UHGV virus genome: UHGV-0041836
Source: a virus
Strand: one strand, 5' to 3'
Length of the DNA stretch: 41,113 nucleotides
The notes below the pieces were generated by a model. The model saw nothing but the letters and a program-made list of their open reading frames with translations. It was not told the origin of the DNA and made no database searches. Of the stretch, positions 1 to 40,827 are shown piece by piece; within the stretch, counting starts at the first letter, position 1; every line of letters starts with the position of its first letter. The translations under genes were made by a program, and so were the position numbers.

Positions 1-49
1 TGACGGGTAAAAAGTGGATAAAATAATTTTACCCACCGGATTTTTACCC

Positions 50-1207
50 ATGCTCACCGTTAAGCAGATTGAAGCAGCAAAGCCGAAAGAAAAACCATAC
101 CGCCTACTCGATGGTAATGGCCTGTACCTTTATGTCCCTGTATCAGGGAAAAAGGTATGGCAGCTTCGCTACAAGATTGACGGTAAGGAGAAAATCCTGA
201 CCGTCGGAAAATATCCACTTATGACTTTGCAGGAGGCAAGAGATAAAGCATGGACCGCGAGGAAAGACATCTCGGTTGGCATCGATCCGGTAAAAGCGAA
301 AAAGGCTTCGTCTAACAACAATTCCTTTAGTGCGATTTACAAGGAATGGTACGAGCACAAGAAGCAAGTCTGGTCAGTAGGCTATGCAACTGAACTTGCA
401 AAAATGTTTGATGACGACATTTTACCTATCATCGGCGGCCTTGAAATTCAGGATATTGAGCCGATGCAACTGCTGGAAGTAATCCGCAGATTTGAAGATC
501 GCGGTGCAATGGAGCGAGCCAACAAAGCCCGCAGAAGATGCGGCGAGGTTTTCCGTTACGCTATTGTCACTGGTAGGGCTAAATATAACCCGGCACCTGA
601 CCTTGCTGACGCCATGAAGGGATACCGCAAGAAGAACTTCCCGTTTCTTCCTGCAGACCAGATCCCTGCATTCAACAAAGCACTGGCAACATTTTCAGGA
701 AGTATCGTATCGCTCATTGCGACCAAAGTTTTACGCTACACAGCCCTAAGAACGAAAGAGCTTCGTTCCATGCTATGGAAGAACGTCGATTTTGAAAACA
801 GGATTATCACCATCGACGCCAGTGTGATGAAGGGACGCAAAATTCATGTGGTCCCGATGTCAGACCAGGTGGTTGAACTTCTCACTACGCTAAGCTCCAT
901 CACCAAACCAGTATCAGAGTTTGTTTTTGCCGGGCGCAACGATAAGAAGAAGCCAATCTGCGAGAACGCGGTTCTACTTGTGATCAAACAAATCGGCTAT
1001 GAGGGTCTAGAAAGCGGTCACGGATTCAGGCATGAATTCAGCACGATTATGAACGAGCACGAATGGCCTGCTGACGCTATTGAAGTGCAACTGGCACATG
1101 CCAACGGCGGATCTGTGCGCGGTATTTACAACCATGCTCAGTATCTCGATAAGCGCAGAGAAATGATGCAGTGGTGGGCGGATTGGCTTGATGAGAAGGT
1201 AGAGTGA
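50..1207 (+). CDS. int: P4-type tyrosine integrase (arm DNA-binding N-domain plus catalytic domain)
   Basis: ORF 14..1207; family-typical start MLTVKQIEAAKPK at ATG 50 (the ORF-track start at 14 is GTG). C-terminal HGFRHEF...Y region typical of tyrosine recombinases. Directly downstream of xis on the same strand. Confidence 0.88.
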   Translation: MLTVKQIEAAKPKEKPYRLLDGNGLYLYVPVSGKKVWQLRYKIDGKEKILTVGKYPLMTLQEARDKAWTARKDISVGIDPVKAKKASSNNNSFSAIYKEWYEHKKQVWSVGYATELAKMFDDDILPIIGGLEIQDIEPMQLLEVIRRFEDRGAMERANKARRRCGEVFRYAIVTGRAKYNPAPDLADAMKGYRKKNFPFLPADQIPAFNKALATFSGSIVSLIATKVLRYTALRTKELRSMLWKNVDFENRIITIDASVMKGRKIHVVPMSDQVVELLTTLSSITKPVSEFVFAGRNDKKKPICENAVLLVIKQIGYEGLESGHGFRHEFSTIMNEHEWPADAIEVQLAHANGGSVRGIYNHAQYLDKRREMMQWWADWLDEKVE

Positions 1208-1358
1208 TCCGCCTTAACAACTATCGAAGAGCACAAAGCCTTGTGTGTCTCATAGGCTATGAAACAATCATTTTACATGGTTACTTCACTACTTCCGCAC
1301 AATATGATATCGTTCACAATCTAAAAACATTAATAATTTATCCATTACCGCGGTTAAT

Positions 1359-1386
1359 GCCCGTCGCTTCCAACGGGCTTTTTTGT
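1359..1386 (+). terminator. rho-independent terminator downstream of int
   Basis: GCCCGT / ACGGGC 6-bp stem with 8-nt loop followed by TTTTTTGT. Confidence 0.5.
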
Positions 1387-1446
1387 AAATTATATTTTTA
1401 TTACCTTATATTAATATTGGTAATATGTCTGCATGATGTTTTATAT

Positions 1447-2139
1447 TTATTGCGTGAGCTTCGCATGATAGCTGGAGCATCTCTTGTCATCACTAATTAG
1501 CTCCGCTTTATCCGTTCTTGCCCATATTATATTTCTTTTTATTATTTTTGCTGGATTACCGGCTGCTGCACACATAGATGGCACATCTTTAGTTACAATA
1601 CTCCCATACCCAATGACAGATCCGCTTCCAACAGATACCCCTTTCATTATAGAGACATTTCTCCCTACCCATACGTAACTAGATATAATGATATCTTTTG
1701 CCCAATTAATCCTTTTTTTGCTATGAATATCAAATATAGGATGCCCATCTGATGCACGCAAAATAACATCTCTTGCTATCATGCAGTCATGGCCAATTGT
1801 AACATTGCACTTATCAGTGACGACTTCAAAACCTGCACCTATTGTCGTTCTTCTACCGATAATAACTTTTGAACCTTTTGTTGCGACAATATCACCTTTA
1901 ATCTTACTGTTTTTATGTATTCTTACGTAATTATTATCACCCCTAAATATTACGGTAAGCCATCGACACTCAACATCATCTTCTATAATAAGTTTGTTAT
2001 TGTTTCCATTGAACTGAACTTTATTCTCTTTGCTATTTACAAGATCTCCACATACAAAAATATTACCTGATCCATTATCATCAACGGAAAACGAGTCTTG
2101 AGTCTTGAGTCTTGAGTCTTGAGTCTTGAGTCTTGACAT
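1447..2139 (-). CDS. neuO: hexapeptide-repeat (left-handed beta-helix) O-acetyltransferase, NeuO-like polysialic acid O-acetyltransferase, phase-variable
   Basis: 230-aa ORF beginning MS(RLKTQDS)x2 encoded by heptanucleotide repeats; hexapeptide acetyltransferase-like body (VIIGRRTTIGAGFEVV, VWVGRNVSIMKGVSVGSGSVIGYGSIV); AT-rich codon usage; AGGA RBS 8 nt upstream of ATG. Confidence 0.85.
   Translation of the reverse strand: MSRLKTQDSRLKTQDSFSVDDNGSGNIFVCGDLVNSKENKVQFNGNNNKLIIEDDVECRWLTVIFRGDNNYVRIHKNSKIKGDIVATKGSKVIIGRRTTIGAGFEVVTDKCNVTIGHDCMIARDVILRASDGHPIFDIHSKKRINWAKDIIISSYVWVGRNVSIMKGVSVGSGSVIGYGSIVTKDVPSMCAAAGNPAKIIKRNIIWARTDKAELISDDKRCSSYHAKLTQ
2093..2134 (-). repeat. 6 tandem copies of heptanucleotide AAGACTC (coding strand) at codons 2-15 of neuO; contingency (phase-variation) tract
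   Basis: Plus strand shows GAGTCTT x6 immediately 5' of CAT (ATG on minus strand). 6 copies = 42 nt, so the reading frame is maintained. Confidence 0.95.
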
Positions 2140-2292
2140 ATTAGTATCCTACGTTATTTTACCACTAGTTACTTTTCTTGTCATTAAAAAGCATTTAAAT
2201 TTTTATATTTAATTTCGTTGACGTCAATGTTTTTTGCCAATGTACTTACTTCTTTATGTGAGCAGTTCATATTTTTGACGCCAACGAAACAT
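2140..2292 (-). promoter_or_regulatory. AT-rich neuO upstream region with candidate -10 (TAAAAT) and RBS; contains TTGACGTCAA palindrome
   Basis: Intergenic 153 bp between tailspike stop and neuO start; promoter elements are guessed by eye only. Confidence 0.35.
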
Positions 2293-5241
2293 TTAGTGCT
2301 TCCCTTCTATTAAGTCTAACCTAGCTTTTATTCTTTCTATTTCTCTGCGCTGCCATGCCGCCTCGATATAGAATAAGAGATCAGGTCTGACCCCCCATCT
2401 AGATCCTGCTGGCGTTATTTCAACGCGCTCAATGATGTCTTCCATTACCATCACTGGATTATCATCCTCATCAACAATGATGCTCCCGTCATTATCAGTC
2501 AGCGGCATTTCCCTTTGGCCAGTAATGACGTCATCATATACTGCGGGATAATCGTCATAGCAAAGAAACGCATAGCGGCATGTTGTGCTTTCTTCTTCCA
2601 TGAGTCCGTGAGAAATAAGAACATCACGAAGTTGCTGCGCGATTACACCATGATGTATCCTCGCCCCTTCTTCCCCCTTTATAGCGACAGCGTTCAGCCA
2701 TTTATAAGCGATATACCTGACGTCACCCCAGGCATCCAGCAATGCTTCGTCAGGAGAGACCGGCTCTGTCTTTAATGTTCCGTCACTGGTAACCACAGGA
2801 TTGGAGCCAAGATAAACTGTCGAGAACCTGTTTCCCGGACCACCAAGAGCATTTACATTATCAAGATAAGGTTTAACATCTCCGTTCTCAAAAAGATGTT
2901 CGAGTGCGTTATATACCGCGCGACGTGGAGTACTGCTTCCGGAACCATGCAACGTTATCATTGCACCATCTGCTGAAGACGTTGTTTCACCGCCGCTAAC
3001 GATTAATCTCTGAGCGGTAACATCATCAGACGGTACTTTCTTCGCAATAATGGCGTAATTACCCTCAAGTTTGACTTCCGCGCGAACTTGTCCTGATGTA
3101 CCTGCATGGACAGTCAGTGACTGGACGGCAACATCATCTGTGAAATCAACGGGTACAGGAACCGTCCTCACGCCTGACGTCGACATAAAAGTAGGAAGCG
3201 TTCTGTTAGGAGTGGCTCCGTAGACAAAATCCCTTGAAACAAATTCTTCCTGTTTAATTTTCACCCTGAAACAATACAAATCAGCCGGGTGACCATCGTG
3301 AACATAAGGATATTTTCTGTTGTTATCCCCTATGCTCCATGGGTTTAGAAAGTCTTCCCCACCGAAAATGTAGTACAGCCAGTTGTCTTTGATACAAACT
3401 GAACCAACACCAACCGCAGAGTTAACTATTCCGCCCTGATAAATCTGATCAGTAACATTAACCCACTCTACATTATCCAGACTCCACTCATTGACGTTAA
3501 CTCTGGTCATAAATGTTCTTGGATAGTTTCCTGCATAACGGTTATCAGGTTCTCCTCCTTCCCACTCACCAAATGCGCGCTCACTGCCAAAAATAATCAG
3601 CTCATCGCCAACTTTGGCAAAAGGAAGGTTTGAGTGATGAACATTATTTGGGAAGCGAAGAGAATTCCATGATGTACCTAAATCAGAGCTTCTGTGCAAT
3701 GAACTACCGGGTTGAGTACTTAATGTCCCCCTGGTCGTCAGATACAGAATGCCATCATAATATTTTACACATGGCTCAGATGCATTCGCCTCATATTCTG
3801 CAGGTATGCGTCTGCGAACAAAGCTACCAGGAGAACCGAAAGCATCAGAGAAATAGAGTATCCCAAGCTCGCGTGGACCAATATCACCATTATGGTAGCC
3901 AACAGCAAAACTGTTATCGCTAATCGTCGCAAAACTGTGAATCTCAGTAACAGGAGTGCTTCCGTCAACAAAAGAAGGAATAGTTCCAAGACTGGTTTTT
4001 CTCCATGGTGACGAGTGAAATGATGTACCAAAACTCCAGTATCTACCCTCGTTATTCTGATCCACATCCTGGGTATTTTGCGTCGTAACTGTAAAAGTAT
4101 TTTTATCAATAACAGTAGTCACCGTCATATTCCCGGTAACACCTGTAACACCAGAGTTTGAGAAGTTGACAAAATCACCAGCAAATAATCCGTGATCAGT
4201 AATGCGAATATAAGCGACTTGCTGATTTGCTGCTTTCGTTATACCACCATAAGCGCGAAGGCTGCGACTCATTGGGCGATCCCACAACTCTGCAACCTGC
4301 AGTTTATTTCCGCTCACGGTCCGCGTCTCAATTACAGCAAAAAGGCGATTTCTGACAACCCCCATACTCATGCAGTGATAGTTAACTGTGGGATAGTTTT
4401 CATGTAAATCTGTAAGCCATTCCGGCGTTGTCCAGGTCCTCCCGTCATCTCCTGAGCGAACCCATGCAACATGGAGGTTATTTACACCATGGCGGTCTCC
4501 AGCCATAAAAGGCGCATAGATGACATTGTCATATACAAACGTTTTATCCTGCGTCCAGGCGTTGTACCACGGTGTATCTGTAATTTTAAATAACTCTCCC
4601 TGGATAAAATCTTCAGAAGCATAAAAAAGAGGCTGACCCGGTATTCTCTCAAATAAAAAACGAGCATTTTTAAATCGACTGACATCTGGAAGAGTTGATA
4701 CTTTAAAAGTAAGCCCTCGCCCATCTATCTTTTCACCACCTGTTGCAACAGAAAGTAATTCTGATAGAGCTGATGTATCATCATGAACACCATCACCAAT
4801 AGCCCCCCAACCTCTTACATCATAACTGTCTCTCCATCTTGCTATCTGAAGTTTTGGGTATTTATTCGCTCCATCTGGGTCTTCTAATTGCTGCCGTAAC
4901 TGATCAGGATCATACTTCAGCACATTCGGAAAATAGAACTGCTGCACACCATATGCATCATAAACAGCCATAGAATGGCCCTGTACAGTAACGAATTTGG
5001 CAATCTGTCCGTTATATACCGGATATCCAGCAGCGTTAATGATGATTGGTTGCGAAACAGGAACGTGAGAACCGTCTTCATTCTCCACATAAACCTGAAT
5101 CTGGTTTTCAGGATTTACTGGGTCAGTGTCAATTTTACCGATATAAATCTTTCCATTAGCTACGGCTTTAAAAGAACGAGCCATAGTGAAGAGTTGCGAA
5201 GGCATGCTTACCACAACATTGGCATTTATTGAATCTGTCAT
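2293..5241 (-). CDS. tailspike: P22 gp9-like N-terminal head-binding domain, endo-N-acetylneuraminidase (endosialidase)-like central domain, C-terminal intramolecular-chaperone (peptidase S74-like) domain
   Basis: 982 aa; N-terminus [61 protein letters not shown] closely matches the P22 tailspike N-domain as recalled; Asp-box motifs SGDDGRTW and SSDLGTSW; C-terminal region resembles autoproteolytic chaperone domains of K1 endosialidases / T5 L-shaped fibre (from memory). Confidence 0.85.
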
Positions 5242-5327
5242 TTAATTTGCTCCAGATACAAGGAATCACCGAAGCATGGCTACGATGAATTTTGGGCATA
5301 AAAAAANNNNNNNNNNGGATAATTTTG

Positions 5328-5356
5328 GGAAAAAAAAAACCCCAGCCGAAGCTGGG
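5328..5356 (-). terminator. rho-independent terminator after ant (minus strand)
   Basis: CCCAGC-CGAA-GCTGGG hairpin with run of T on the minus strand (A-run 5328-5339 on plus); adjacent to a 10-N gap at 5307-5316. Confidence 0.5.
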
Positions 5357-5375
5357 TTGTCGCGTTGGTTATCTG

Positions 5376-6305
5376 TCAGTAGTTATGTACTGAAGGAGGT
5401 AATTCTTTATTCTTAAGTCTCATCCATGCGGAAAGATTCGTTGGTCCGTCTGGCTCATTGATATCAACATCTCGTGTGTGGTTTATTAAAACGTCTCTTG
5501 CCATTCCGATAACATACGAGAACTCATGGCCATAGTCGTAGCATCTGCCGGAATAGTTCGATTGAATTTGTTTTAGCGCCGGATACAGTTCGCGGAATAA
5601 TGCCTGTGCGCGGTTGGCATAATCCCATAACCATACAAGGCTGTTTGCTTCTTTTGCAGAAAGCTCGTTTGCTTTCTTCTCTTGTTTGCCGATTAACTCG
5701 CCTTCAAGCGGAACGCGAGCTGCAAGTGACAGAGCTTCGGTAAACTGCTCATCGCTGATTTCTTTGTATGAACATCCAAAATGGGATTTCAGTGACGACC
5801 ACATGGTGATCATCGCCTTAGCCTGTTTTTCCTTTGGCAGAGACTGACCGCGACTCATGACGAGTTGTTTAATGGCTTCCTGCTGTTCAGTGGTGATTTT
5901 ACCCGGCAACGCCTTTTTAGCTTTGCGTGGGTTAACTACATGGCCTTTAGTCCAGTATTCGTAGAGCACATCGTCACACTCTTCCTGATACTGGATTACC
6001 TTGTCGCGGATTTCAGGGCGGACTTTGTTAGGGCTAATGGTTTGCAGCCAACCTGCAAGTTTGCGAAGTGCCAAACAAATAATCTCACGGCGCTGTTCAT
6101 CACTAGGAAGCTGCATTGTGATTTTCACAATGGAGGTTTTAAACCGCTGCTTCATTTTCGTAAACTGTGAAGCCCAATCCATACCCATGCCTTCAACGAT
6201 AGGTTTCATTGGGGTATACGGTTCGCCGTTGTGATTGACAACATAAAGCTCTGCGCCGTGGAATGGTACATTGATAGTAGATACTGCTGTTGCTATACTT
6301 TTCAT
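5376..6305 (-). CDS. ant: antirepressor Ant (P22 immI-type)
   Basis: 309 aa, N-terminus MKSIATAVSTINVPFHGAELYVVNHNGEPYTPMKPIVEGMGMDW typical of P22-like antirepressors; sits downstream of arc. Confidence 0.8.
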   Translation of the reverse strand: MKSIATAVSTINVPFHGAELYVVNHNGEPYTPMKPIVEGMGMDWASQFTKMKQRFKTSIVKITMQLPSDEQRREIICLALRKLAGWLQTISPNKVRPEIRDKVIQYQEECDDVLYEYWTKGHVVNPRKAKKALPGKITTEQQEAIKQLVMSRGQSLPKEKQAKAMITMWSSLKSHFGCSYKEISDEQFTEALSLAARVPLEGELIGKQEKKANELSAKEANSLVWLWDYANRAQALFRELYPALKQIQSNYSGRCYDYGHEFSYVIGMARDVLINHTRDVDINEPDGPTNLSAWMRLKNKELPPSVHNY

Positions 6306-25712: not shown

Positions 25713-25788
25713 TGGTGCTGGTTAACGGACTTGAACCGCTACCCATTCGCTTACAAGGCGACCGCTCTACCATTGGAGCTAAACCAGC
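25713..25788 (-). tRNA. tRNA-Thr (anticodon TGT) candidate
   Basis: Hand-folded cloverleaf on minus strand: GCTGGTT-TA-GCTC-CAATGGTA-GAGC-G-GTCGC-CTTGTAA-GCGAA-TGGGT-AGCGG-TTCAAGT-CCGTT-AACCAGC-A-CCA (76 nt; 7/7 acceptor pairs; encoded CCA). Confidence 0.7.
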
Positions 25789-25793
25789 ATATT

Positions 25794-25868
25794 TGGCGGG
25801 ACAGCGTGGACTCGAACCACGATAAGAAGGTTAACAGCCTTCCGTAATGACCTTTATACGACTGACCC
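25794..25868 (-). tRNA. tRNA-Asn-like (anticodon GTT) candidate, possibly degenerate
   Basis: Minus strand GGGTCAG...GAAGG-CTGTTAA-CCTTC-TTAT-CGTGG-TTCGAGT-CCACG-CTGTCCC-G-CCA; good anticodon and T arms, one acceptor mismatch (T-T) and a weak D-stem. Confidence 0.5.
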
Positions 25869-29243: not shown

Positions 29244-31124
29244 TTAATACTCCGTCACGTTTTCCTGTCGCCACGCCTCGTCATATTCCGATTTCGGCAT
29301 ATTGGCGATGTAGCTATATGGCGATCCTGATTCAAGTTGCAGGAACTGGTGCGATTGCTCGTCAAGGAACAACGGGACACCACCTTCCCAACCTTCGCCG
29401 TTACGTTGTTTTTCAAGCATCAAAACAGATGCCGGAGATGCCAGTAGCTGTTCGTCCTTCTCTGACATCTTTTCACCACTCTGAACTCTCTGTAACGCTC
29501 TCTCGCGAGCCTTGTTACGCCAGATGATGAAAAGGTTGTCTGTCAGGTCTGTTATCGCTCCAGAGCCTTTTACGTCCATTTTCCCGGTTGGTTTTTCTTC
29601 GCTGTCTCCTTTTCGCGAGTGAGTAACGAGAATGACGTGGGAGTTTGTTTTGTTTTTGAAGTCGCAAATCGAGTCAACAAACGCCTTCTGCCCGTTATAG
29701 TCATCGTCGCCTATGCCACATTTCATCAGGCTGTCGATGATGAATAACTGGATCCCGTATCGGCGGCGAGCGTAGTCGAATATTTCGATCAGCCTGTCGG
29801 CTTTCGCCGTTCCGGTCAGGCCAAACACCCAAAGTCTTTCGTCATAAAATTTAAATGCAGAGTCAATTTCCAGCACTGGCGGCATCTTGCAGCACGTCGC
29901 CTGACGGGTAAGTCGCTTAAGGAGAATGCCTGGCTTCAGCTCAAGTGACGCGATGCACGTCTTCACACCCTGACGCATTGCCTCAAGTGCCATATGCCCG
30001 ACAACCTCCGTTTTTCCGTGACCGTTCACACCATTGACCAGCGTCAACTCTGCCTCACGGAACTGGAATTTATCTGCCAGAGATTCCCACGGTGGATTAA
30101 ACAGATACTGCTGCTTGCCGTAGAAAGCGTTGATAGTGTCCTGGTAAAACTCTCGCGCGCTGTAGAGTTCTTCAGGATCGAAGTAGGATGCCGTGCCGAT
30201 GTACTGCCAGATTTCATCCTCGGTAACACCGTTCATCAGGCATTCGTTGATGTCTTTGTACGGCAGAGTAACAAGACGGCAACGATGTTCACCGAGTCGG
30301 CTTGCGATTTCCCTTGCGGCTTCACGACCAACATCATCAACGTCCATCGAGATGAATATTTCCTCAAACCTGTCGAGGTTGTGATACTCAAACTCAATCC
30401 ACTGCTGTTTAGCGCCTTTCCCGCCACCAAACGGCACGGATAACGCCGAGATGCCATATTGCGCATAGCTCATACAATCAATTTCGCCTTCGCAAAGTAC
30501 AACCGCCCTCACGCCAGCGTCCAGAGCCTGCCATCCAAACAGACAAGGTTCGCAATCACCTTCTGCCATAATGACTTTCTTCCCGTCCGGTCGCTCAGTG
30601 CTGATTCGCTTGACCTGCAACAACTCACCATCGCGTTTGTACGGAAGCACCAGTGCATCAAGTTCTCGTTCTCCATTCCACACCTTGCCGCTGACAACCT
30701 CGTAGCGCTTTACGACTTCTGGCGATATGCCACGCGATTGCAGGTACTCAAGATGGGATTCTGTTCTGGTAACGTAGCGGGCGATTTTCTTGCGGTCAGG
30801 TCTGGAGAATTTCTTCTCACGTTTGGCATCGAAATGGTGATCGTCATCCTTGATTCCGAGAAAGGCTTTCGCTTCCTGCATAGCCTGATGCAGGTTAATT
30901 CCACGACATGCCATCCACAAATCAAGCATGTCACCGCCGTCTCCCTCAGCGAAATCAGCCCATTTTTTCTTGCCGCTAAGGTTGACCTTAAGGCTGTTTC
31001 CCTTGTCACCGTTGACGTTACCGGCAACCCACTCATGCCCCTCTTTCTTGCCGTTTGGCAACAGGTGCGGAGCCACCCTGTCAACCTGCGCCCAAAGCAG
31101 GTCACTGAGTTCACTTGGCGTCAT
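29244..31124 (-). CDS. bifunctional DNA primase / replicative helicase (Toprim-primase N-part, DnaB/RepA-like P-loop helicase C-part)
   Basis: 626 aa; Toprim-like acidic motifs (LCEGEIDCMSY, DVDDVGREAA) and Walker A-like NGVNGHGKTEV; occupies the position of lambda P / P22 gene 12. Confidence 0.8.
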   Translation of the reverse strand: MTPSELSDLLWAQVDRVAPHLLPNGKKEGHEWVAGNVNGDKGNSLKVNLSGKKKWADFAEGDGGDMLDLWMACRGINLHQAMQEAKAFLGIKDDDHHFDAKREKKFSRPDRKKIARYVTRTESHLEYLQSRGISPEVVKRYEVVSGKVWNGERELDALVLPYKRDGELLQVKRISTERPDGKKVIMAEGDCEPCLFGWQALDAGVRAVVLCEGEIDCMSYAQYGISALSVPFGGGKGAKQQWIEFEYHNLDRFEEIFISMDVDDVGREAAREIASRLGEHRCRLVTLPYKDINECLMNGVTEDEIWQYIGTASYFDPEELYSAREFYQDTINAFYGKQQYLFNPPWESLADKFQFREAELTLVNGVNGHGKTEVVGHMALEAMRQGVKTCIASLELKPGILLKRLTRQATCCKMPPVLEIDSAFKFYDERLWVFGLTGTAKADRLIEIFDYARRRYGIQLFIIDSLMKCGIGDDDYNGQKAFVDSICDFKNKTNSHVILVTHSRKGDSEEKPTGKMDVKGSGAITDLTDNLFIIWRNKARERALQRVQSGEKMSEKDEQLLASPASVLMLEKQRNGEGWEGGVPLFLDEQSHQFLQLESGSPYSYIANMPKSEYDEAWRQENVTEY

Positions 31125-31231
31125 GATTCCCTCAGATTGAGATTTTTAAACCAGAAATCGACAAACGAAATACTTAACCAGCCGTGGTTATAACCAGCGA
31201 CCAGTAGCGATTTGATTTTTGATTTCATGGT

Positions 31232-32092
31232 TCACCTGTCGAAAAACACGTAGCCAGTTTTCGATACGGTGATTGCGGATGATGGTTTGGATTGTGGTTG
31301 AATAGTTTCTGGCTTCTCGTCGTTCCAGCGCTGACCGTTCAGGTAGCTCGATGGTAACAACCTGTCGAATCCGAACTGCTTACCATTCCTGCATGCGATG
31401 TCTTCTGCCAGCATCGTGGCAAACTCGCTTGCCGTACCCCTGGTAGTTTTACGCCATTCCCTGAACTGTGTTCTGAATGCCGAAGCTGCGTTTTTCTTCC
31501 CGGCCTTCCGCATGCCTGCACACCAGAATATTTCCTCGAATGCCTTGTCGGTTTCTTCGTGACGGTCAGGTGATTTTTCACACTCCGTCCGAACACTTTC
31601 GGACATAGTGTTTTTATTATTTCTTTTTTCTTTTGTAATAGTTTCTTTTGTGTGTCCCTGTTTTGGTGACAGCGCTGTCACCGTTTTGGTGACACTTTTT
31701 GTCACCAATGCAGTGACATTATCACCAGAGTAGTGACACCCTTCGATTTGCCATTCCTCGATGTTCTTGTTAGGCCCGATTTGCTGGCCTTCGCGAAGGA
31801 TAACCTTCATCGCGATAAGCTCATTCTTGGCCTTGTTTACCTTCTGTCTTGGCAGCCTGGTAATTTGAGCTAACTGACTATCAGAGATGCGATCCATCTT
31901 TTTACCGTAGCCGTATGTTTTACGGCATATGGCGTGGGCAACCTTGCTCTGATTTTTCGTTAAATCTGCGCCGATAAGCTCTTCATACAGGGCATTTGCA
32001 AGACGGGTATAACCATCTTCAACTTCTGCCACACGACGCTCCACAGGCCGTTGTGAAGGCCTTAAATGTGTTACGGTTGCAAGATTACTCAT
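31232..32092 (-). CDS. O: replication initiator O (lambda O-like), ori iterons embedded
   Basis: 286 aa; N-terminal domain resembles lambda O N-terminus; contains iteron array and AT-rich tract inside the coding sequence. Confidence 0.85.
31590..31741. repeat. origin of replication: 4 iterons (GGTGACA / TGTCACC inverted-repeat units) plus adjacent AT-rich tract
   Basis: TTTTGGTGACAGCGCTGTCACC, TTTTGGTGACACTTTTTGTCACC, GCAGTGACATTATCACC, AGTAGTGACACC in tandem at 31658-31741, AT-rich stretch 31590-31650. Confidence 0.65.
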
Positions 32093-32231
32093 GACCTTTC
32101 TCCTTCTGCATCAGCTTCACTTTTTCCAACTCAGCCCGGAATCGACCAGGCTGCTTGAAGCTGGACAGGAAGCGATCACGTAGTATGTGTTTGTGAATTT
32201 TGTCCTGGTAAGGACTGAGTTGTTTTGTCAT
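32088..32231 (-). CDS. small ORF (48 aa) between cII and O
   Basis: [48 protein letters not shown] with AGGAG RBS; overlaps O start by 8 nt. Confidence 0.35.
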
Positions 32232-32266
32232 AATGACTCCTGTGGATTGATCCAGTCTTTCTACAA

Positions 32267-32548
32267 TCAGGCCTCGAAGAATTCGCCGTTCTTCGGGGCT
32301 TTTTCTTTTGTCAGGTAATCGGCAAGCCGCTTAGTCAATTCAGCCATTTCATCGTCTTCGATTCCGTATTCCAGAACAGCCAGCATCATGCTTACCTGCG
32401 AGAAGAAACCATTCTTCCATCGGCTTACCTGGTATTCAGGAACCCCCATCGCGCGAGCGAATGTCTTCTGCCCCATCAGTGCCAGTTTGTTCAGCAAGGC
32501 CGACTCGATGCGAGCCGCTTTCTTGCTTTTAGTTGCAATAGTACCCAT
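32267..32548 (-). CDS. cII: CII transcriptional activator
   Basis: 93 aa; [25 protein letters not shown]...QVSRWK...MMLAVLEYG resembles lambda CII. Confidence 0.88.
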
Positions 32549-32595
32549 AGATAATTTCCTTAATGATTAGATAGAGTTGGCTTCGCAAAGAAACG

Positions 32596-32633
32596 CAAAA
32601 CCATAGAGATTTGTTTCTGGTAATGCCCTTTTT
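32596..32633 (-). promoter_or_regulatory. nutR (boxA CGCTCTTAC, boxB GCCCTGAAAAAGGGC)
   Basis: Minus-strand boxA at 32633..32625 and boxB hairpin at 32610..32596, between cro and cII; lambda nutR consensus. Confidence 0.8.
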
Positions 32634-32664
32634 CAGGGCGGTGATGTGTAAGAGCGTTAATAAC

Positions 32665-32895
32665 TTAAGCGGCCATTAATTCAGGCCAGATGCTTTCCCA
32701 ATCAACCGGATGAAGGTCTTTGCGAGTCACTTCACCATTGCTGAACTTCTCAATCAGAACACAAAGTGCTGCGCCCAATTCATGATTACGGCTAAGTGCT
32801 TTCCTCAAATAGCCGATAGAAGTTCCGCACTTGGTGGCAAATTCTCTCTGCTCTTCCAGTGAAAGGGAGTTCAGATACAAGCGGAGTTCTTCCAT
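32665..32895 (-). CDS. cro: Cro-like HTH repressor
   Basis: 76 aa; HTH QREFATKCGTSIGYLRKAL; first gene of the rightward operon, divergent from cI. Confidence 0.75.
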   Translation of the reverse strand: MEELRLYLNSLSLEEQREFATKCGTSIGYLRKALSRNHELGAALCVLIEKFSNGEVTRKDLHPVDWESIWPELMAA

Positions 32896-32926
32896 TTGCT
32901 ATCTCCTTCCCGTTGTTGAATAAGAT

Positions 32927-32997
32927 GAGTTTACCTGTAGGTAAAAAGCAAATCAATACCCATAGGTTATTTACCGGCAGGTAATCAAAGATAGAAT
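32927..32997. promoter_or_regulatory. oR operator/promoter region (pR on minus strand, pRM on plus strand)
   Basis: Operator half-site pattern TTACCTGTAGGTAA (32931-32944) and TTACCGGCAGGTAA (32971-32984); minus-strand -35 TTGATT / 17 nt / -10 TAAACT; plus-strand -10 TAGAAT before cI. Confidence 0.6.
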
Positions 32998-33003
32998 TAA
33001 ATC

Positions 33004-33690
33004 ATGGATAAATACGAACAAAGACGACTAAGGCTGATAGAGATAAGAGACCGATTCTGTAATGGAAAGGCCTCAGAGTTGGCTCGTCGAATAGAAAGGG
33101 AACCATCATACGTTTCCAGAATGCTGTATCCGGAAGGAAAAAGCGGAAAAAAACGCATTGCTGACGATATGATGGAACTAATTGAAAAATCTTTTAATCT
33201 CCCACGCGGATGGATGGACATGCTTGCAGATGGTAAAGCTGGAGCTACAGACCATCTTGAGTTTGCGGGTAACGTTCGTGCGGGTTTTGTTCCGGTAATT
33301 GGTGAAGCCGTTTTGGGAGTTGATGGCTCAGTGGATATGATTGAATTCAGATCCGGTTGGTTAAGCATCTACAGCGGCGATAAAGATGCTTACGGTCTGA
33401 AGGTTAAGGGTGACAGCATGTGGCCAAGGATTCAGTCAGGAGAATATGTTGTTATTGAACCAAATACGCCAGTACATCCAGGTGATGAAGTCTTTGTAAG
33501 GACCAAAGACGGTCACAACATGATAAAGATCATGAACAAAACAAGAGACGGTGATTATCAGTTTAGTAGCATAAACAGTGATCACCGCCCAATCACTCTT
33601 CCTGTTGAAGAAGTTGATAAAATGCATTTTGTTTCAGCTATTGTGAAACACACCAGGTACGTAGACCAGGACGATCTGCCAAAAGTTTGA
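33004..33690 (+). CDS. cI: CI-type repressor with C-terminal S24 (LexA-like) autopeptidase domain
   Basis: 228 aa; N-terminal HTH region; C-terminal GDSMWP...KIM Ser-Lys dyad context typical of S24 peptidases; divergent from cro. Confidence 0.9.
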   Translation: MDKYEQRRLRLIEIRDRFCNGKASELARRIEREPSYVSRMLYPEGKSGKKRIADDMMELIEKSFNLPRGWMDMLADGKAGATDHLEFAGNVRAGFVPVIGEAVLGVDGSVDMIEFRSGWLSIYSGDKDAYGLKVKGDSMWPRIQSGEYVVIEPNTPVHPGDEVFVRTKDGHNMIKIMNKTRDGDYQFSSINSDHRPITLPVEEVDKMHFVSAIVKHTRYVDQDDLPKV

Positions 33691-34001
33691 GGATAAAGCA
33701 GCAAGTGTTTATACCCGGCATAGTAGTCGCTGTTGTAATCATCTGCTTCATATGGGCAAAGTTATCTCCTGTAAGCTCTAAGCATACAGCTGAACTCATG
33801 AAGAAGAAGCATCTTATACATGAGGCAGAATCGATAATTAAAAAGTTCAAAGGCATGTCATACGACGACATGTCATCAGAGCAGATTGCTATGTATAAAT
33901 GCGCCATTGAGCGTCTTGACTACTTAAACGGACTCAAACCCAAACACACCCCAGTAGAATCAAAATTGCCGCAATGGCCAAGCAATCCAAATAGCTTCTG
34001 A
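33687..34001 (+). CDS. small N-terminally membrane-anchored protein in the rex position (downstream of cI); non-ATG start
   Basis: 104-aa track ORF starts at TTG 33687 (alternative GTG 33705); hydrophobic segment IPGIVVAVVIICFIWAKL; AT-rich codon usage; followed by a strong terminator. Confidence 0.4.
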   Translation: MRIKQQVFIPGIVVAVVIICFIWAKLSPVSSKHTAELMKKKHLIHEAESIIKKFKGMSYDDMSSEQIAMYKCAIERLDYLNGLKPKHTPVESKLPQWPSNPNSF

Positions 34002-34012
34002 CATCTCCTTTC

Positions 34013-34060
34013 AGCCCCCCCAACCGGGGNNNNNNNNNNNNGAAAGGGGGGCTTTTTTAT
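34013..34060 (+). terminator. rho-independent terminator after the cI operon (loop contains a 12-N gap)
   Basis: AGCCCCCC ... GGGGGGCT 8-bp stem followed by TTTTTTAT; N-run 34030-34041 lies in the loop. Confidence 0.6.
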
Positions 34061-34078
34061 ATCAATCCAAAAAATTAA

Positions 34079-34163
34079 TTACCTGAAAATTCAAGCAGGT
34101 AAACTCTTACATCAATTTTATTTACCTACAGGTATAGACAGCTGTTTTACCTGTAGGTATATT
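34079..34163 (+). promoter_or_regulatory. oL operators and pL promoter
   Basis: TTACC-N-GGTA operator sites at 34079-34102, 34122-34135, 34147-34160 (same motif as oR); -35 TAGACA (34135-34140), 17-nt spacer, -10 TATATT (34158-34163). Confidence 0.65.
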
Positions 34164-34203
34164 TTAGGCCATCAGCAGGACGCACTGACCACCATGAAGG
34201 TGA

Positions 34204-34234
34204 CGCTCTTAAAAATTAAGCCCTGAAGAAGGGT
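34204..34234 (+). promoter_or_regulatory. nutL (boxA CGCTCTTAA, boxB GCCCTGAAGAAGGG)
   Basis: lambda nutL consensus upstream of N. Confidence 0.8.
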
Positions 34235-34432
34235 AGCATTCAAAGCAGAAGGCTTTGGGATTGGATGAATGAGCAGGCTGATGCTCGACCAATGTATAAA
34301 CAGCGCTCATGGCAAGCAGTAACCAATCTGCGCCTCAAGACAGCGTCACTGGTAGTGCGGGCGCTCTAACCAGTAAGCCGGGGTTCAGCGCCGGCCATCC
34401 AATCACCAAAGCTAACTGACAAGAGAATCCAG

Positions 34433-34759
34433 ATGGATGCACAAACACGCCGCCGCGAACGTCGCGCAGAGAAACAGGCTCAATGGAAAGCAGCAAATCC
34501 CCTGTTGGTTGGGGTAAGCGCAAAACCAGTTAACCGCCCTATTCTCTCGCTGAATCGCAAACCAAAATCACGAGTAGAAAGCGCACTGAATCCGATAGAC
34601 CTTACAGTGCTGGCTGAATACCACGAACAGATTGAAAGCAACCTGCAACGTATTGAGCGCAAGAATCAGCGCACATGGTACAGCAAGCCACGTAGTGAAA
34701 TGGGTGTGACTTGTGTTGGTCGCCAGAAAATGAAATTAGGCAGCAAACCACTTATTTGA
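34433..34759 (+). CDS. N: antitermination protein N (lambda type)
   Basis: 108 aa; MDAQTRRRERRAEKQAQWKAANPLLVGVSAKPVNRPILSLNRKPKSRVESALNPIDLTVLAEYH matches lambda N arginine-rich motif and body as recalled. Confidence 0.95.
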   Translation: MDAQTRRRERRAEKQAQWKAANPLLVGVSAKPVNRPILSLNRKPKSRVESALNPIDLTVLAEYHEQIESNLQRIERKNQRTWYSKPRSEMGVTCVGRQKMKLGSKPLI

Positions 34760-34767
34760 GGTGATAT

Positions 34768-34854
34768 ATGGAAGAAGAATTTGAAGAGTTCGAAGAGCAT
34801 CCTCAAGATGTGATGGAACAATACCAGGACTATCCGTATGACTACGACTATTGA
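34768..34854 (+). CDS. small acidic ORF (28 aa, lambda orf28-like)
   Basis: MEEEFEEFEEHPQDVMEQYQDYPYDYDY with AGGTGA RBS; overlaps ral start. Confidence 0.45.
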   Translation: MEEEFEEFEEHPQDVMEQYQDYPYDYDY

Positions 34855-35038
34855 TACAAATCAATGGTGTGGACAATTCAAACGATGCAATGGATGCAAG
34901 CTGCAATCGGAATGCATGGTTAAGCCTGAAGAAATGTTTCCTGTAATGGAAGATGGGAAATATGTCGATAAATGGGCAATACGAACGACGGCAATGATTG
35001 CCAGAGAACTTAGTAAACAGAATAACAAGGCTGCCTGA
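34838..35038 (+). CDS. ral: restriction alleviation protein Ral
   Basis: 66 aa; MTTTIDTNQWCGQFKRCNGCKLQSECMVKPEEMFPVMEDGKYVDKWAIRTTAMIARE matches lambda Ral as recalled. Confidence 0.9.
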   Translation: MTTTIDTNQWCGQFKRCNGCKLQSECMVKPEEMFPVMEDGKYVDKWAIRTTAMIARELSKQNNKAA

Positions 35039-35096
35039 TGGTGGCCTTTATTTTTGTCCGTAAATAATTTCATGCTTATTACAATCAAGGTGATAT

Positions 35097-35519
35097 ATGG
35101 AAGAACAAGCAAACAAGATTCTCGTAGAACTTCTGCAAAAAGCCAGTAATGGAATAGACGCGGCTGTTTCATTTAGCCAGGCACAGATTCCTGATGTTGT
35201 TCGTCAGTTGCTAACATGGAGTTTTGTCCATAGCGCACTTTTCCAAGTGGCTGGGTTGTTGCTTTTAATTGCAGCAATGAAACTTCCTAGTTTTGCAAGA
35301 ACGGCAAGAAATAATGGCGAGAGATGGACGTCTTTAGATGGATGTCCAAACGATAGATATTTTATATCTTCGTTTTATTACGATATATGCACTGTATTTG
35401 CTCCTATATTTGGCTCAATTATTGGCGTTTTAATTATTGCCTTCAATTTCGAATGGTTGAAGATTTGGCTTGCACCTAAGTTATTCCTAATTGAATATGC
35501 AGCATCATTGGTTAAGTAA
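35097..35519 (+). CDS. two-transmembrane-helix membrane protein, possible SieB-type superinfection-exclusion protein
   Basis: 140 aa; hydrophobic segments LLTWSFVHSALFQVAGLLLLIAAM and FAPIFGSIIGVLIIAFNF; AT-rich codon usage; pL-operon position where lambdoid phages carry sieB/exclusion morons. Family assignment is a guess. Confidence 0.4.
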   Translation: MEEQANKILVELLQKASNGIDAAVSFSQAQIPDVVRQLLTWSFVHSALFQVAGLLLLIAAMKLPSFARTARNNGERWTSLDGCPNDRYFISSFYYDICTVFAPIFGSIIGVLIIAFNFEWLKIWLAPKLFLIEYAASLVK

Positions 35520-35522
35520 TTT

Positions 35523-35548
35523 CAGGCCGCATAGTCGGCCTTTATTTT
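35523..35548 (+). terminator. rho-independent terminator
   Basis: GGCCG-CATAGT-CGGCC followed by TTTATTTTT. Confidence 0.5.
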
Positions 35549-35668
35549 TGGCATAAACAACAGAATAAACACTGCACTGTGTATTCATTCCAACGAGTGA
35601 ATACACGGAGCAATGTCGCTCGTAACTAAACAGGAGCCGACTTGTTCTGATTGTTGGAAATCTTCTTT

Positions 35669-35698
35669 GCCCTCCAGTGTGAGGGCAATTTTTTTTGA
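35669..35698 (+). terminator. rho-independent terminator
   Basis: GCCCTC-CAGTGT-GAGGGC followed by AATTTTTTTT. Confidence 0.5.
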
Positions 35699-35708
35699 TG
35701 GAGGATAT

Positions 35709-36663
35709 ATGAGTGAAGTAACAGATTTAGTTGTTATTGAAAAAGCAAATGCAATGACTGTATTTTAGTCTGCCGACCAGATTGAAGAAATTCTCCAAAA
35801 GGTTGAACGTGAAGTTATGTCATTTGTGCCTGATATCACAACGGCAAAGGGCAGAAAGGAGATCGCTTCTCTGGCGTATAAAGTTGCGCAGACGAAAACA
35901 TATCTCGATGGTCTTGGCAAAGACCTTGTTGCTGAACTGAAGGAAATTCCAAAGCTAATTGATGCCAACCGCAAGACAGTGCGCGATCGCCTTGATGAAC
36001 TGAAAGCCAAGGCGCGCCAGCCTCTTACTGATTATGAGGAAGAACAGGCGCGGATTAAAGCCGAAGAAGAAGCTAAGGCAGCAGCTGAAGCTCTCGCAAA
36101 GCAAATTGAGTCTGACCATGAAATAGCGATTTTGATGGATCGCGAATTTGACCGCCAAAGAGAAGAGGCAAGACTCAAAGCGAGAGCATGAAGAACGATT
36201 AAAAAGAGAAGCTGAAGAGAAAGCCAGAGCAGAAGCCGAAGCAAAGGCAAAAGCCGAAATTGAAGCAGCAGCAAGGCGAGAAGCAGAAGCTAAGGCCGCA
36301 GCGGAACGTGCAGAGCGTGAACGCATTGAAGCCGAGCAACGAGCACAGCGCGAAGCAAAAGAGGCAGCAGAACGAGCTGAAAGAGAAAAGCAGGCAGCAA
36401 TTGAAGCAGAACGCAGAAAAGCACAGGAGGAGGCTGAACGAATCCGTCGCGAGGCTGAAGCAAAAGAGCAAGCCAGAATAGCAGAAGAAAAAAGAATCAA
36501 GGACGAAGAAGAGCGTAGAGCAAAGGATAAAGCTCACCGGAAAGAAGTAAATAACAAAATACTTGCTGACCTTATCAAGGTTGGCGCATCAGAAGATGTT
36601 GCTAAAAATATCATAACAGCCATCGTAAAAGGCGAAGTATTCGCAACAAAAATAACCTACTAA
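35709..36663 (+). pseudogene. early-left gene encoding a highly charged EAKAK/ERAER-repeat (TolA-like coiled-coil) protein, interrupted by an in-frame amber codon and a frameshift
   Basis: ATG 35709 ... TAG at 35766-35768 then continuous frame to 36191; the downstream frame (36148..36663) has no ATG start near the junction (the track start is TTG) and continues the same charged repeat; frame change near 36180 within an AGAG run. Confidence 0.5.
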
Positions 36664-36687
36664 TAAAACCAACATAAGGAACCACCC

Positions 36688-36819
36688 ATGATTTACGCAA
36701 TCGCGGGAGGCGCTCGCATGGGTGCCTTCCAACTAAATGAATCTTTACTTGAACGAATCACCCGTAAATTACGTGACGGATGGAAAAGAGTTGAGGTCTT
36801 ATTATGCGCAATGAAATAG
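36688..36819 (+). CDS. small hypothetical ORF (43 aa)
   Basis: MIYAIAGGARMGAFQLNESLLERITRKLRDGWKRVEVLLCAMK; overlapping start/stop with the next small ORF. Confidence 0.3.
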   Translation: MIYAIAGGARMGAFQLNESLLERITRKLRDGWKRVEVLLCAMK

Positions 36820-36957
36820 CCATCAATCACCAGATGCTTCGTGCTGCACAGAACAAAGCAGTAATAGCCAGATTTATTGGTGATTCCAAAATGTGGCTTG
36901 AAGCAAATAAAGCGATGAAATCAGCTATCAACCTTCCGTGGTATCGCAGGAAATGAG
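36805..36957 (+). CDS. small hypothetical ORF (50 aa)
   Basis: MRNEIAINHQMLRAAQNKAVIARFIGDSKMWLEANKAMKSAINLPWYRRK; ATGA overlap with the next ORF. Confidence 0.3.
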
Positions 36958-37112
36958 TTTTACAGATAACTGGTCAGACGAAGAATTCATTCGTCAGATT
37001 AAAGAATTAATCGGTAACGAAGGAGATATTCATGTCACTTGCAACCACAGTGAAGGAGAGCAAGTTACAGAGACGCATGTACACGCAGAAAGCTCTCTGG
37101 TATCGCCATAAT
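36954..37112 (+). CDS. small hypothetical ORF (52 aa)
   Basis: MSFTDNWSDEEFIRQIKELIGNEGDIHVTCNHSEGEQVTETHVHAESSLVSP. Confidence 0.3.
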
Positions 37113-37212
37113 GGTGACCGCGAAGGAATGCGGGTATGCCTTAATTTGTCCCGAGTCGAAGTATTAAATCAGCGTTATTTCCTTGGGCCGTGTCCATTCT
37201 GAGAGCAATCAT

Positions 37213-37818
37213 ATGAGCAAAGAATTTTACGCAAGACTGGCAGCTATTCAGGAGAATCTGAACGCGCCAAAGAATCAGTACAACTCATTCGGCAAATATA
37301 AATACAGAAGCTGCGAAGATATTCTTGAAGGCGTTAAGCCGTTACTGAACGGTCTGTTTTTATCAATCAGCGATGAAGTTGTGTTGATTGGTGATCGGTA
37401 TTACGTGAAAGCCACGGCAACTATTACCGATGGCGAAAACAGTCATACGGCAACCGCTCTTGCACGAGAGGAAGAAAGCAAGAAAGGAATGGATTCTGCA
37501 CAAGTTACGGGAGCTACAAGCTCTTATGCACGCAAGTATTGCCTCAATGGTTTGTTCGGCATTGATGATGCGAAAGATGCAGATACAGACGAGCATAAAC
37601 ATCAGCAGAACGCAGCAGCAAAGCAATCAAAACCATCACTTACACCTGAACAGGTTCTAAAAGCATTCACTGACGCAGCAATGCAGAAAAACACCGTAGA
37701 AGAGCTTAAACAGGCGTTCGCCAAAGCGTGGAAGATGCTCGAAGGGACGCCGGAGCAGCACAAAGCGCAGGACGTTTACAACATCAGACGAGACGAATTA
37801 GAAGGGGCAACTGCTTAA
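37213..37818 (+). CDS. erf: Erf-family single-strand annealing protein
   Basis: MSKEFYARLAAIQENLNAPKNQYNSFGKYKYRSCEDILEGVKPLLNGLFLSISDEVVLIGDRYYVKATATITDGENSH matches P22 Erf as recalled; start at ATG 37213 (track ORF begins at 37183). Confidence 0.9.
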   Translation: MSKEFYARLAAIQENLNAPKNQYNSFGKYKYRSCEDILEGVKPLLNGLFLSISDEVVLIGDRYYVKATATITDGENSHTATALAREEESKKGMDSAQVTGATSSYARKYCLNGLFGIDDAKDADTDEHKHQQNAAAKQSKPSLTPEQVLKAFTDAAMQKNTVEELKQAFAKAWKMLEGTPEQHKAQDVYNIRRDELEGATA

Positions 37819-38201
37819 TGGCACATTCGATTACAGTAAGACTAAACAAACCCGCAAGAGAGTTTCAGGGCGGGGAAAATATCGGATTCAACATCCGTGC
37901 TGGCGTTCAGTATTACGATCGCCAGACAAAAAAGAAAGAATGGACAAACTACAGCGCCGTTGTATTTGCCAAGCCGGGAGCGCAAGCGGATTACTATCGT
38001 AGCGTTCTGGTTGAAGGAGGCATTGTAGAAATTACCGGAGAAAACATCAGGGTTGATGTTTATCAGGGGCAAAATGGTCAATCAATCACTCTTGAATTAC
38101 TGAATGCAAAGATTGGATTTGCAACTTCAGGAAACAGCCAACAGCAGCAAAGTAGCAATCATCAAAATAATCCTGAATACGACGATTCCATCCCATTCTG
38201 A
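37818..38201 (+). CDS. single-stranded DNA-binding protein-like (OB fold with SSB-type acidic C-terminal tail DDSIPF)
   Basis: 127 aa from ATG 37818 (TAATG overlap with erf stop); C-terminus ...QQQQSSNHQNNPEYDDSIPF resembles the SSB DDDIPF tail. Confidence 0.65.
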   Translation: MAHSITVRLNKPAREFQGGENIGFNIRAGVQYYDRQTKKKEWTNYSAVVFAKPGAQADYYRSVLVEGGIVEITGENIRVDVYQGQNGQSITLELLNAKIGFATSGNSQQQQSSNHQNNPEYDDSIPF

Positions 38202-38224
38202 TTTAGAAAAATAAGGATTTAATT

Positions 38225-38521
38225 ATGCCAGCGCCTTTGTATGGTGCGGATGACCCGCGCCGCTGTTCCGGCAATTCCGTATCGGAGGTGCTGGATAAAT
38301 TCAGAAAAAACTACGATCGAATAATGTCTCTACCGCAGGAAACGAAAGAGGAAAAGGAATTTCGCCACTGTATATGGCTTGCAGAGAAAGAAGAACGCGA
38401 GCGAATTTACCAGACATCAATCCGACCATTCCGCAAAGCCACATATACCCACTTCCCTGAATATATCGACCCGCGCCTGCGTAATTACCGCTCACGCTAT
38501 GGCGCTATCAGTAATGACTGA
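38225..38521 (+). CDS. abc2: Abc2-like anti-RecBCD protein
   Basis: 98 aa; MPAPLYGADDPRR...IMSLPQETKEEKEFRHCIWLAEKEER resembles P22 Abc2 as recalled; adjacent to erf as in P22. Confidence 0.6.
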   Translation: MPAPLYGADDPRRCSGNSVSEVLDKFRKNYDRIMSLPQETKEEKEFRHCIWLAEKEERERIYQTSIRPFRKATYTHFPEYIDPRLRNYRSRYGAISND

Positions 38522-38597
38522 GGAATTTACCATGAGAGGACTTGCTTAAGAGAAAGAGTTTCGGTTCTGTTAATGACAACAAATATCTGAATGCGAT

Positions 38598-39134: not shown

Positions 39135-39430
39135 CTGTATGTCTTATTGATAAACGTCGACGTGGGCAACAAATACCATCTGTTGAAATGCCGAATCACA
39201 CATGGTTTTGCGTACTTGATATCGATGGTATGGATACGTTGGTTGACACTCGTCATTACTGCGATACCGCAACAGCTACTCCGGCGAAAGCAAAGAAAAT
39301 GGCTGCTCTGATAGAAAACTGGACTCCACCTGATGGTTGGTGCAATGGGAATGATCGAGATTGGCACGAAAAAATGAAGGGCTATATCTGCGATTTTTTA
39401 CGTAAATGCAACGGCTTCAGGGGGATGTGA
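39131..39430 (+). CDS. hypothetical early-left protein (Cys-rich)
   Basis: 99-aa ORF, ATGA-coupled to the upstream ORF. Confidence 0.5.
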   Translation: MTVCLIDKRRRGQQIPSVEMPNHTWFCVLDIDGMDTLVDTRHYCDTATATPAKAKKMAALIENWTPPDGWCNGNDRDWHEKMKGYICDFLRKCNGFRGM

Positions 39431-39431
39431 T

Positions 39432-40565: not shown

Positions 40566-40637
40566 TAATCCTCGCACTCGCGGGGATTTCTTTTATCTGA
40601 ACTCGCTACGGCGGGTTTTGTTTTATGGAGATGATAA

Positions 40638-40805: not shown

Positions 40806-40820
40806 TGGCGGTTTTTTATT
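40797..40820 (+). terminator. rho-independent terminator at the end of the early-left gene block
   Basis: CCGCC-TGAT-GGCGG followed by TTTTTTATT. Confidence 0.6.
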
Positions 40821-40827
40821 GCCTGAT

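Follow-up and report, generated by a model that had tools for sequence, protein, structure and literature searches.

The poly-psi heptanucleotide repeat of neuO in a mosaic CUS-3-type prophage genome: a six-copy, genotypically ON allele

Introduction

Contingency loci that switch by changes in repeat number are familiar from Haemophilus and Neisseria, where lic1 carries CAAT repeats and opa carries CTCTT repeats. For simple-sequence repeats, the more units a tract contains the higher is its rate of slippage. The closest described system to the locus considered here is neuO, the gene for the polysialic acid O-acetyltransferase of E. coli K1, and a crystal structure of this same protein has been solved at 1.7 Å.

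The account of neuO given in PMC3046976, which cites Deszo 2005 and King 2007, names slipped-strand mispairing as the mutational mechanism, with changes of a single unit being the commonest. As related in the same source, natural copy numbers range from 2 to 93 (Mordhorst 2009), and the heptad extension encoded by the repeat is dispensable for activity, with the catalytic efficiency of the enzyme increasing linearly as heptads are added (Bergfeld 2007). Natural alleles as short as 2-3 copies have been reported, with both phases represented, and the extension is disordered in the NeuO crystal (PMC3046976). O-acetylation is protective against lytic K1 phage and neutrophils and is serum-sensitising (PMC13001214, PMC9659370). 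Transcription of neuO depends on DsdC, a regulator of the host whose binding is mostly within the coding sequence, and the CUS-3 prophage that carries the gene integrates between argW and dsdC (PMC9659370). Among 64 genomes in a published survey, repeat numbers ran from 3 to 53 and 34% of the alleles were ON, and a culture of strain MS7163 was a mixture in which 93% had 21 repeats, 1.9% had 20 and 5.4% had 22 (PMC13001214).

Here we describe the sequence anatomy, NeuO identity, reading-frame rule, inter-strain length variation and prophage context of a heptanucleotide repeat in the virus genome UHGV-0041836, the whole 41,113-nucleotide stretch of which is referred to as the window. The repeat is almost certainly the poly-psi VNTR of neuO, carried as polysialic acid O-acetyltransferase cargo by an E. 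coli K1 prophage of the P22-like CUS-3 type.

Results

The tract lies on the minus strand at positions 2093-2134, where both TRF and direct reading gave the six perfect 5'-AAGACTC-3' units that the first-pass annotation had reported there. TRF gives the array a score of 88 over 2093-2136, with a period of 7 and 6.3 copies that match at 100%; the fractional copy arises because the TC between the ATG and the tract is the end of a partial seventh unit. No other array in the window comes close, the runner-up scoring 44, and in a search of the whole window for perfect tandem repeats of period 4-12 with at least three copies it was the only one found. The chance expectation for perfect 42-nucleotide tracts of period 7, given the base composition of the window, is approximately 4e-17. 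Read on the minus strand the sequence is ATG TC (AAGACTC)x6 G TTT TCC…, with the six full units running from 2134 to 2093. The tract had been described as lying directly after the start codon at the 5' end of the gene, with no strand stated; the position at the 5' end stands, but the two bases TC intervene between the start codon and the first unit. Coding on the plus strand can be ruled out since TGA occurs in each of the three frames across the tract, and therefore only the minus strand can be read through it.

The gene itself occupies 1447-2139 on the minus strand, as seen from the list of open reading frames and from the PDB and Pfam matches, and encodes 230 amino acids plus the stop codon in frame, starting from the ATG at 2137-2139. 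Translation from 2139 to 1447 gives the N-terminus MS-RLKTQDS-RLKTQDS-FSVDDNGSGN, with the two heptads that had been read from the sequence at first pass. Directly 5' of the ATG the sequence reads …GTAGGATACTAAT, in which a Shine-Dalgarno-like AGGA (2147-2150, minus strand), a candidate called from the sequence, is positioned 7 nucleotides upstream of the start codon. Further upstream, at 2156-2184 on the same strand, a consensus scan picked out a candidate promoter of sigma-70 type, ATGACA-17-TAAAAT, which matches the consensus at 10 of 12 positions and has the TG of an extended -10. In the promoter and terminator scan the number of sites in the region was not above the shuffle expectation, and both the promoter and the AGGA ribosome-binding site are candidates at the level of consensus. 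The gene is AT-rich relative to its surroundings (36% G+C versus 47% for the window), which fits a cargo, or 'moron', gene.

Two further features of the sequence around the gene may be mentioned. The int and neuO genes converge, and in the gap that separates them a G+C-rich hairpin, GCCCGTCGCTTCCAACGGGC, at 1359-1378 is followed by TTTTTT; this is likely to be the terminator of int and possibly acts in both directions. Codon 2 of neuO, at 2135-2136 of the window within the partial seventh unit, is polymorphic, being ATGTC (Ser2) in the window and in the alleles of strain 729, UPEC129, GN02050, EC28 and Es_ST80, and ATGTT (Leu2) in CUS-3 RS218, ZJ3920, MS7163 and the crystallised construct.

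The identity of the protein is clear from its match to PDB entry 3jqy, described as 'polysialic acid O-acetyltransferase', with an E-value of 5e-153 and a score of 509.9 bits. Residues 2-230 align with residues 16-244 of 3jqy_B with 228 of 229 identical, the sole substitution being I26V, so that the alignment to the NeuO reference is essentially perfect and the earlier assignment as a NeuO-type O-acetyltransferase is confirmed. The hexapeptide-repeat body that had also been proposed is recognised by Pfam (PF00132 Hexapep) at 6e-11, above the cut-off. All of the top PDB matches are left-handed beta-helix (LbH) acetyltransferases, with 3jqy followed by OatWY (2wlc; E 3.5e-31) and then by generic galactoside and maltose acetyltransferases. 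The numbering of 3jqy is that of a four-heptad protein, whereas the window protein has two heptads; with the resulting shift of -14, R59, K81, R123, H133 and W157 correspond to Arg73, Lys95, Arg137, His147 and Trp171 of the structure. Of these, His147 and Trp171 are catalytic, Arg137 contributes to the oxyanion site and Arg73 and Lys95 are in the acceptor site (PMC3046976). NCBIfam was found to contain no NeuO-specific model, and its galactoside, maltose and WbbJ acetyltransferase models matched far below their cut-offs, which is why RefSeq labels the gene merely 'acyltransferase'. Judged by its sequence the ORF is NeuO itself, beyond being NeuO-like. The 99.6% identity, together with the K1-specific tailspike encoded next to it, would imply that in a K1-encapsulated host the enzyme uses acetyl-CoA to O-acetylate alpha-2,8 polysialic acid.

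To see how reading frame depends on copy number the gene was rebuilt with between 0 and 12 units. A full-length product, of 216-244 amino acids, was obtained only with 0, 3, 6, 9 and 12 units. When the number of units leaves a remainder of 1 on division by three the product ends …RLVFR, and when the remainder is 2 it ends …RFPLMIMDQVIFLYVEIL, in each case followed by a stop; the two OFF phases terminate 5 or 18 codons past the tract. The natural alleles follow the same pattern. GN02050 with 3 copies, ZJ3920 with 9, Es_ST80 with 12 and MS7163 with 21 have ORFs from the ATG of 223, 237, 244 and 265 amino acids, respectively, while the ORF is truncated in UPEC129 (5 copies), 729_xx_1_3_yolk (14 copies), 729_021014_1_4 and CUS-3 RS218 (both 19 copies) and EC28 (53 copies). 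RefSeq annotates a full-length CDS in GN02050, ZJ3920, Es_ST80 and MS7163 and a C-terminal fragment or pseudogene in the OFF genomes. The simulation and the natural alleles therefore both bear out the rule, given in the first-pass annotation, that only multiples of three give the full-length enzyme. With six copies and an in-frame 230-residue ORF the window allele is genotypically ON, as had been claimed, the call being one made on a consensus sequence.

Of 5426 complete E. coli genomes, 178 contain the neuO region, in every case on the chromosome. The spans of the matches depart from that of the query by whole multiples of 7, and from them copy numbers were derived for 90 records and verified in ten loci by counting the units directly. 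An invariant tract had been put forward at first pass as something that would speak against a contingency locus; across the 90 complete-genome records with scorable spans the tract varies from 3 to 53 copies. Phases 0, 1 and 2 are represented by 30, 25 and 35 records, so that approximately one third are ON, as expected from an unbiased frame lottery. This count reproduces the published survey. The flanks of the tract are 99-100% identical across the genomes compared, and with such conserved flanks and such a wide range of lengths the tract is therefore hypervariable. In MS7163 the 21 copies counted here equal the published Sanger-verified value (PMC13001214).

The closest allele is that of UPEC129, which has one unit fewer than the window and is otherwise identical across the 854-base neuO query; it is also 100% identical to the window over the 1614 bases of the right-end query. 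Three isolates of the poultry strain '729' have 19 copies, 14 copies and an interrupted tract, the last (L003) consisting of 17 copies, 22 odd bases and 12 further copies, or approximately 32 copies in all. The interruption is probably a sequencing error. On the left the flanks of the three isolates are identical; on the right, 1-8 SNPs separate them over 1666 nucleotides. On account of these SNPs and the interrupted tract the isolates were not treated as clonal, and their differences in length are supporting rather than decisive evidence. No six-copy allele was present among the approximately 90 complete-genome records inspected, and an exact search of the IMG/VR viral contigs for a six-copy tract with its flanks also gave none. 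Short alleles, of 3, 5, 8, 9 and 10 copies, are present in finished genomes.

The surroundings of the gene are those of a CUS-3-type prophage, with neuO positioned between int and an endosialidase tailspike gene, in agreement with the parallel to the prophage gene neuO that had been drawn at first pass. The integrase, an IntS-type tyrosine recombinase at 14-1207 on the plus strand (Pfam Phage_integrase, 5.3e-39), marks the left end of the prophage and is next to argW in relatives. Immediately upstream of neuO and on the same strand, siaK1 (2293-5241, minus strand) encodes the 982-residue endosialidase tailspike, which is annotated in CP000711 and in which Pfam identifies End_beta_propel (1.6e-233), End_tail_spike, a P22-type Head_binding domain and Peptidase_S74; this gene defines the context as that of a K1-specific phage. 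Positions 1-6000 of the window are 98.7% identical over 100% of their length to CUS-3 (CP000711; host E. coli RS218), in which the order of genes is likewise int, neuO, siaK1, ant and in which the neuO tract is annotated as a 'poly(psi) domain' with 19 copies of AAGACTC.

Outside this segment the similarity to CUS-3 is partial. Over 6001-30000 CUS-3 covers approximately 61% and phiv205-1 (APEC DE205B), with 82%, is the best overall match. The early region of immunity and replication genes at 30001-34678 resembles mEp043/Sf101 and has no CUS-3 match, and lambdoid phages of the mEp043 and Sf101 types match approximately 74% of 30001-41113 at approximately 97.5%. The CUS-3 match resumes at 34679 and continues to 40843, the right end of CUS-3. 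The prophage is thus a mosaic P22-like relative of CUS-3 and not CUS-3 proper. A search for the att core located a copy of the 16-nucleotide TTGCAGGTTCGATTCC at 40828-40843 on the plus strand, where the alignment with CUS-3 ends at its attR; this copy marks the right-hand boundary of the mobile element with neuO. Complete genomes whose flanks are identical have the order yfdC – tRNA-Arg (argW) – intS – neuO – tailspike … torI – dsdC, which agrees with the integration site published for CUS-3 (PMC9659370). The flanking argW and dsdC are known from these relatives only, as the window stops short of both.

A number of other observations were made along the prophage. At its right end torI, for a 66-residue excisionase and TorR inhibitor, lies at 40863-41063, beyond the attR core that is marked in the record of CUS-3. 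In UPEC129 (locus L005, 4829-5154) a second argW-derived core, CTGCAGGGGACACCATT, which is the extreme 3' end of tRNA-Arg, follows torI at a position corresponding to approximately 24 nucleotides past the end of the window, and the element excisable by IntS and TorI may reach past the CP000711 boundary. Adjacent phage-borne genes for tRNA-Thr(TGT) and tRNA-Asn(GTT) are found at 25713-25868 on the minus strand. The early-left region contains a degenerate AGAAGC array at 36207-36290, with approximately 14 copies, 63% matches and a TRF score of 43; a frameshifted 'TolA'-like gene is annotated in UPEC129 near the corresponding part of the prophage. There are also two runs of N, of 10 bases at 5307-5316 and of 12 bases at 34030-34041, both intergenic and in hairpin- or terminator-like surroundings. 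The first is placed between an A-run and a G/A-run (CCCCAGCCGAAGCTGGG), in the region where CUS-3 has its siaK1-ant 'bsq1' boundary, and the second reads CAGCCCCCCCAACCGGGG-N12-GAAAGGGGGGCTTTTTT. Such runs suggest a draft or masked assembly.

In a comparison of one representative genome per species and a protein-database search, the NeuO family proved to be very narrow, comprising NeuO itself as one cluster at 90% identity with 516 members, a relative at 86-87% and a relative at 60%, and nothing else above 50%. The relative at 86-87%, a figure that applies over the enzyme body, occurs in other enterobacterial DNA, namely in a metagenome-assembled genome of Atlantibacter sp. (L012) and in a contig of JGI metagenome 3300011750 (L020). 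In the latter, at 1-3204, the NeuO-like gene is directly downstream of an endosialidase tailspike gene whose product is 64% identical in amino acid sequence to that of the window, an order of tailspike then acetyltransferase that matches 1447-5241 of the window. The same cassette is seen at 2500-3648 of the Atlantibacter contig, with the tailspike reduced to a 3' remnant. The sister genes have no tandem repeat, start with GTG and have an N-terminus, VAQDVDKSF…, unrelated to that of NeuO; lacking the repeat, they are presumably not phase variable. Homology between the DNA of the window and that of the sister genes extends from the stop codon up to position 2073 of the window, where it stops 20 nucleotides downstream of the tract. 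The position of this break suggests that the module of promoter, start codon and VNTR is a lineage-specific replacement of the 5' end. A literature search for a link between neuO and Atlantibacter or hermannii gave none.

Discussion

For the slippage mechanism, the enzymatic activity, the graded efficiency and the phenotypes we draw on the published work on neuO. On this basis the AAGACTC tract would be a hypermutable contingency tract that, in the window, encodes two RLKTQDS heptads. Slippage of the strands at replication would allow the seven-base units to mispair, and the tract would gain or lose units, mostly singly. As seven is not divisible by three, a change of a single unit shifts the frame. 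Copy numbers divisible by three give the full-length enzyme (ON) and the other two phases are OFF, and within the ON phase each three units add one more RLKTQDS heptad to the disordered N-terminal extension. The tract would in this way act as both a switch and a dimmer. The published rationale for stochastic switching is that an acetylated capsule cuts killing by K1 phage and by neutrophils while raising sensitivity to serum.

The window allele, with its six units, is genotypically ON and encodes two heptads; going by the published kinetics, its enzyme should be active but of comparatively low efficiency, towards the bottom of the scale. The ON state is a genotype read from a consensus sequence, and the phase belongs to the sequenced population and not to the strain. 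The K1 capsule locus (kps/neu) lies outside the window, and the source strain was, we infer, K1-encapsulated and expressing neuO.

How freely such an allele switches is less certain. It would seem rather unlikely, although it deserves consideration, that six copies are too few for efficient switching and that the allele is held in a quasi-stable ON state of low activity. Six is among the lower values in the range of 3-53 seen here, the enzyme is the more efficient the more heptads it has (PMC3046976) and, as is generally the case for simple-sequence repeats, the slippage rate rises with the number of units. Against this, natural alleles of 2-3 copies are known in both phases (PMC3046976), and the five-copy tract of UPEC129, in a sequence otherwise identical to the window over the 854- and 1614-base queries, suggests that changes of one unit in either direction do occur at such a length. 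The six-copy allele may nonetheless switch more slowly than typical alleles of 15-30 copies, because short tracts generally slip less often.

That the length of six copies, and with it the ON call, is an artefact of assembly or of consensus, the true tract being longer or heterogeneous, is very unlikely. The window contains two runs of N, the complete-genome assembly of the third '729' isolate has a plainly error-ridden tract, cultures are mixtures, as in MS7163 (PMC13001214), and a second six-copy allele was found neither in the approximately 90 complete genomes nor in IMG/VR. However, collapse of the tract is improbable since 42 nucleotides is shorter than any modern read; moreover, the tract is perfect with its unique flanks intact, and natural alleles of 3, 5, 8, 9 and 10 copies are present in finished genomes. 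A generic hexapeptide-repeat acetyltransferase acting on another substrate, such as O-antigen or a xenobiotic, with the repeat as a neutral microsatellite, might be read from the missing NCBIfam model, the sub-threshold family matches and the RefSeq name 'acyltransferase', but this is refuted to the point of being barely conceivable by the 99.6% identity of the body to the biochemically and structurally characterised, crystallised NeuO and by the locus, which equals that in CUS-3, and the frame-dependent ORF lengths and the ON share of approximately one third fit a switch.

The sister genes provide a modest lead that stands apart from the identification of the tract as the poly-psi VNTR of neuO. 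Tentatively, and with somewhat less than an even chance in our estimation, the contingency tract could be a 5' graft in the CUS-3 lineage, in which a module of promoter, start codon and VNTR made a constitutive gene switchable and tunable, and phages that target polysialic acid would exist beyond K1. If this were true, a constitutive receptor-modifying phage gene would have become both switchable and tunable through the acquisition of a new 5' module, and polysialic-acid-targeting phages with such cargo would be circulating outside E. coli K1.

The gene in the window is itself already known, being a known gene at a known locus that differs in the length of the allele, in the conservative substitution I26V and in the Ser/Leu polymorphism of codon 2, and current understanding is unchanged by its finding here. 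O-acetylation of the capsule affects phage resistance, killing by neutrophils, serum sensitivity and antigenicity in the E. coli of neonatal meningitis and urosepsis. The practical value is one of annotation, in that the 230-residue ORF can be named neuO, of ON genotype with two heptads, and not 'acyltransferase'.

Compared with neuO of CUS-3 (RS218; Deszo 2005, King 2007), the gene in the window is the same and so is its place in the order int - neuO - siaK1. The AAGACTC unit and its two-base offset from the ATG are alike, the body is identical at 228 of 229 positions and the named active-site residues are retained. The two differ in that the window has 6 copies (ON) where the RS218 record has 19 (OFF), and Ser2 (ATGTC) where RS218 has Leu2 (ATGTT), and the window protein has the I26V substitution relative to the crystallised NeuO.

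The closest solved homologue after NeuO is OatWY of N. meningitidis W-135/Y (PDB 2wlc; E 3.5e-31). Both enzymes are left-handed beta-helix proteins that act on a sialic-acid capsule (PMC3046976). OatWY, in contrast to NeuO, has no N-terminal heptad extension and no 5' VNTR, uses a heteropolymer as acceptor and is encoded on the chromosome in the capsule locus, whereas neuO of the window is prophage cargo. An assignment of the OatWY type was ruled out by the distance of the homology (3.5e-31 versus 5e-153) and by the prophage location.

Like the contingency loci of Haemophilus and Neisseria, neuO has an intragenic repeat whose slippage shifts the reading frame and stochastically switches a function that modifies the surface. 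Unlike those loci, it has a seven-nucleotide unit, its repeat encodes, when ON, a functional peptide extension that tunes activity, and the gene is carried on a mobile prophage.
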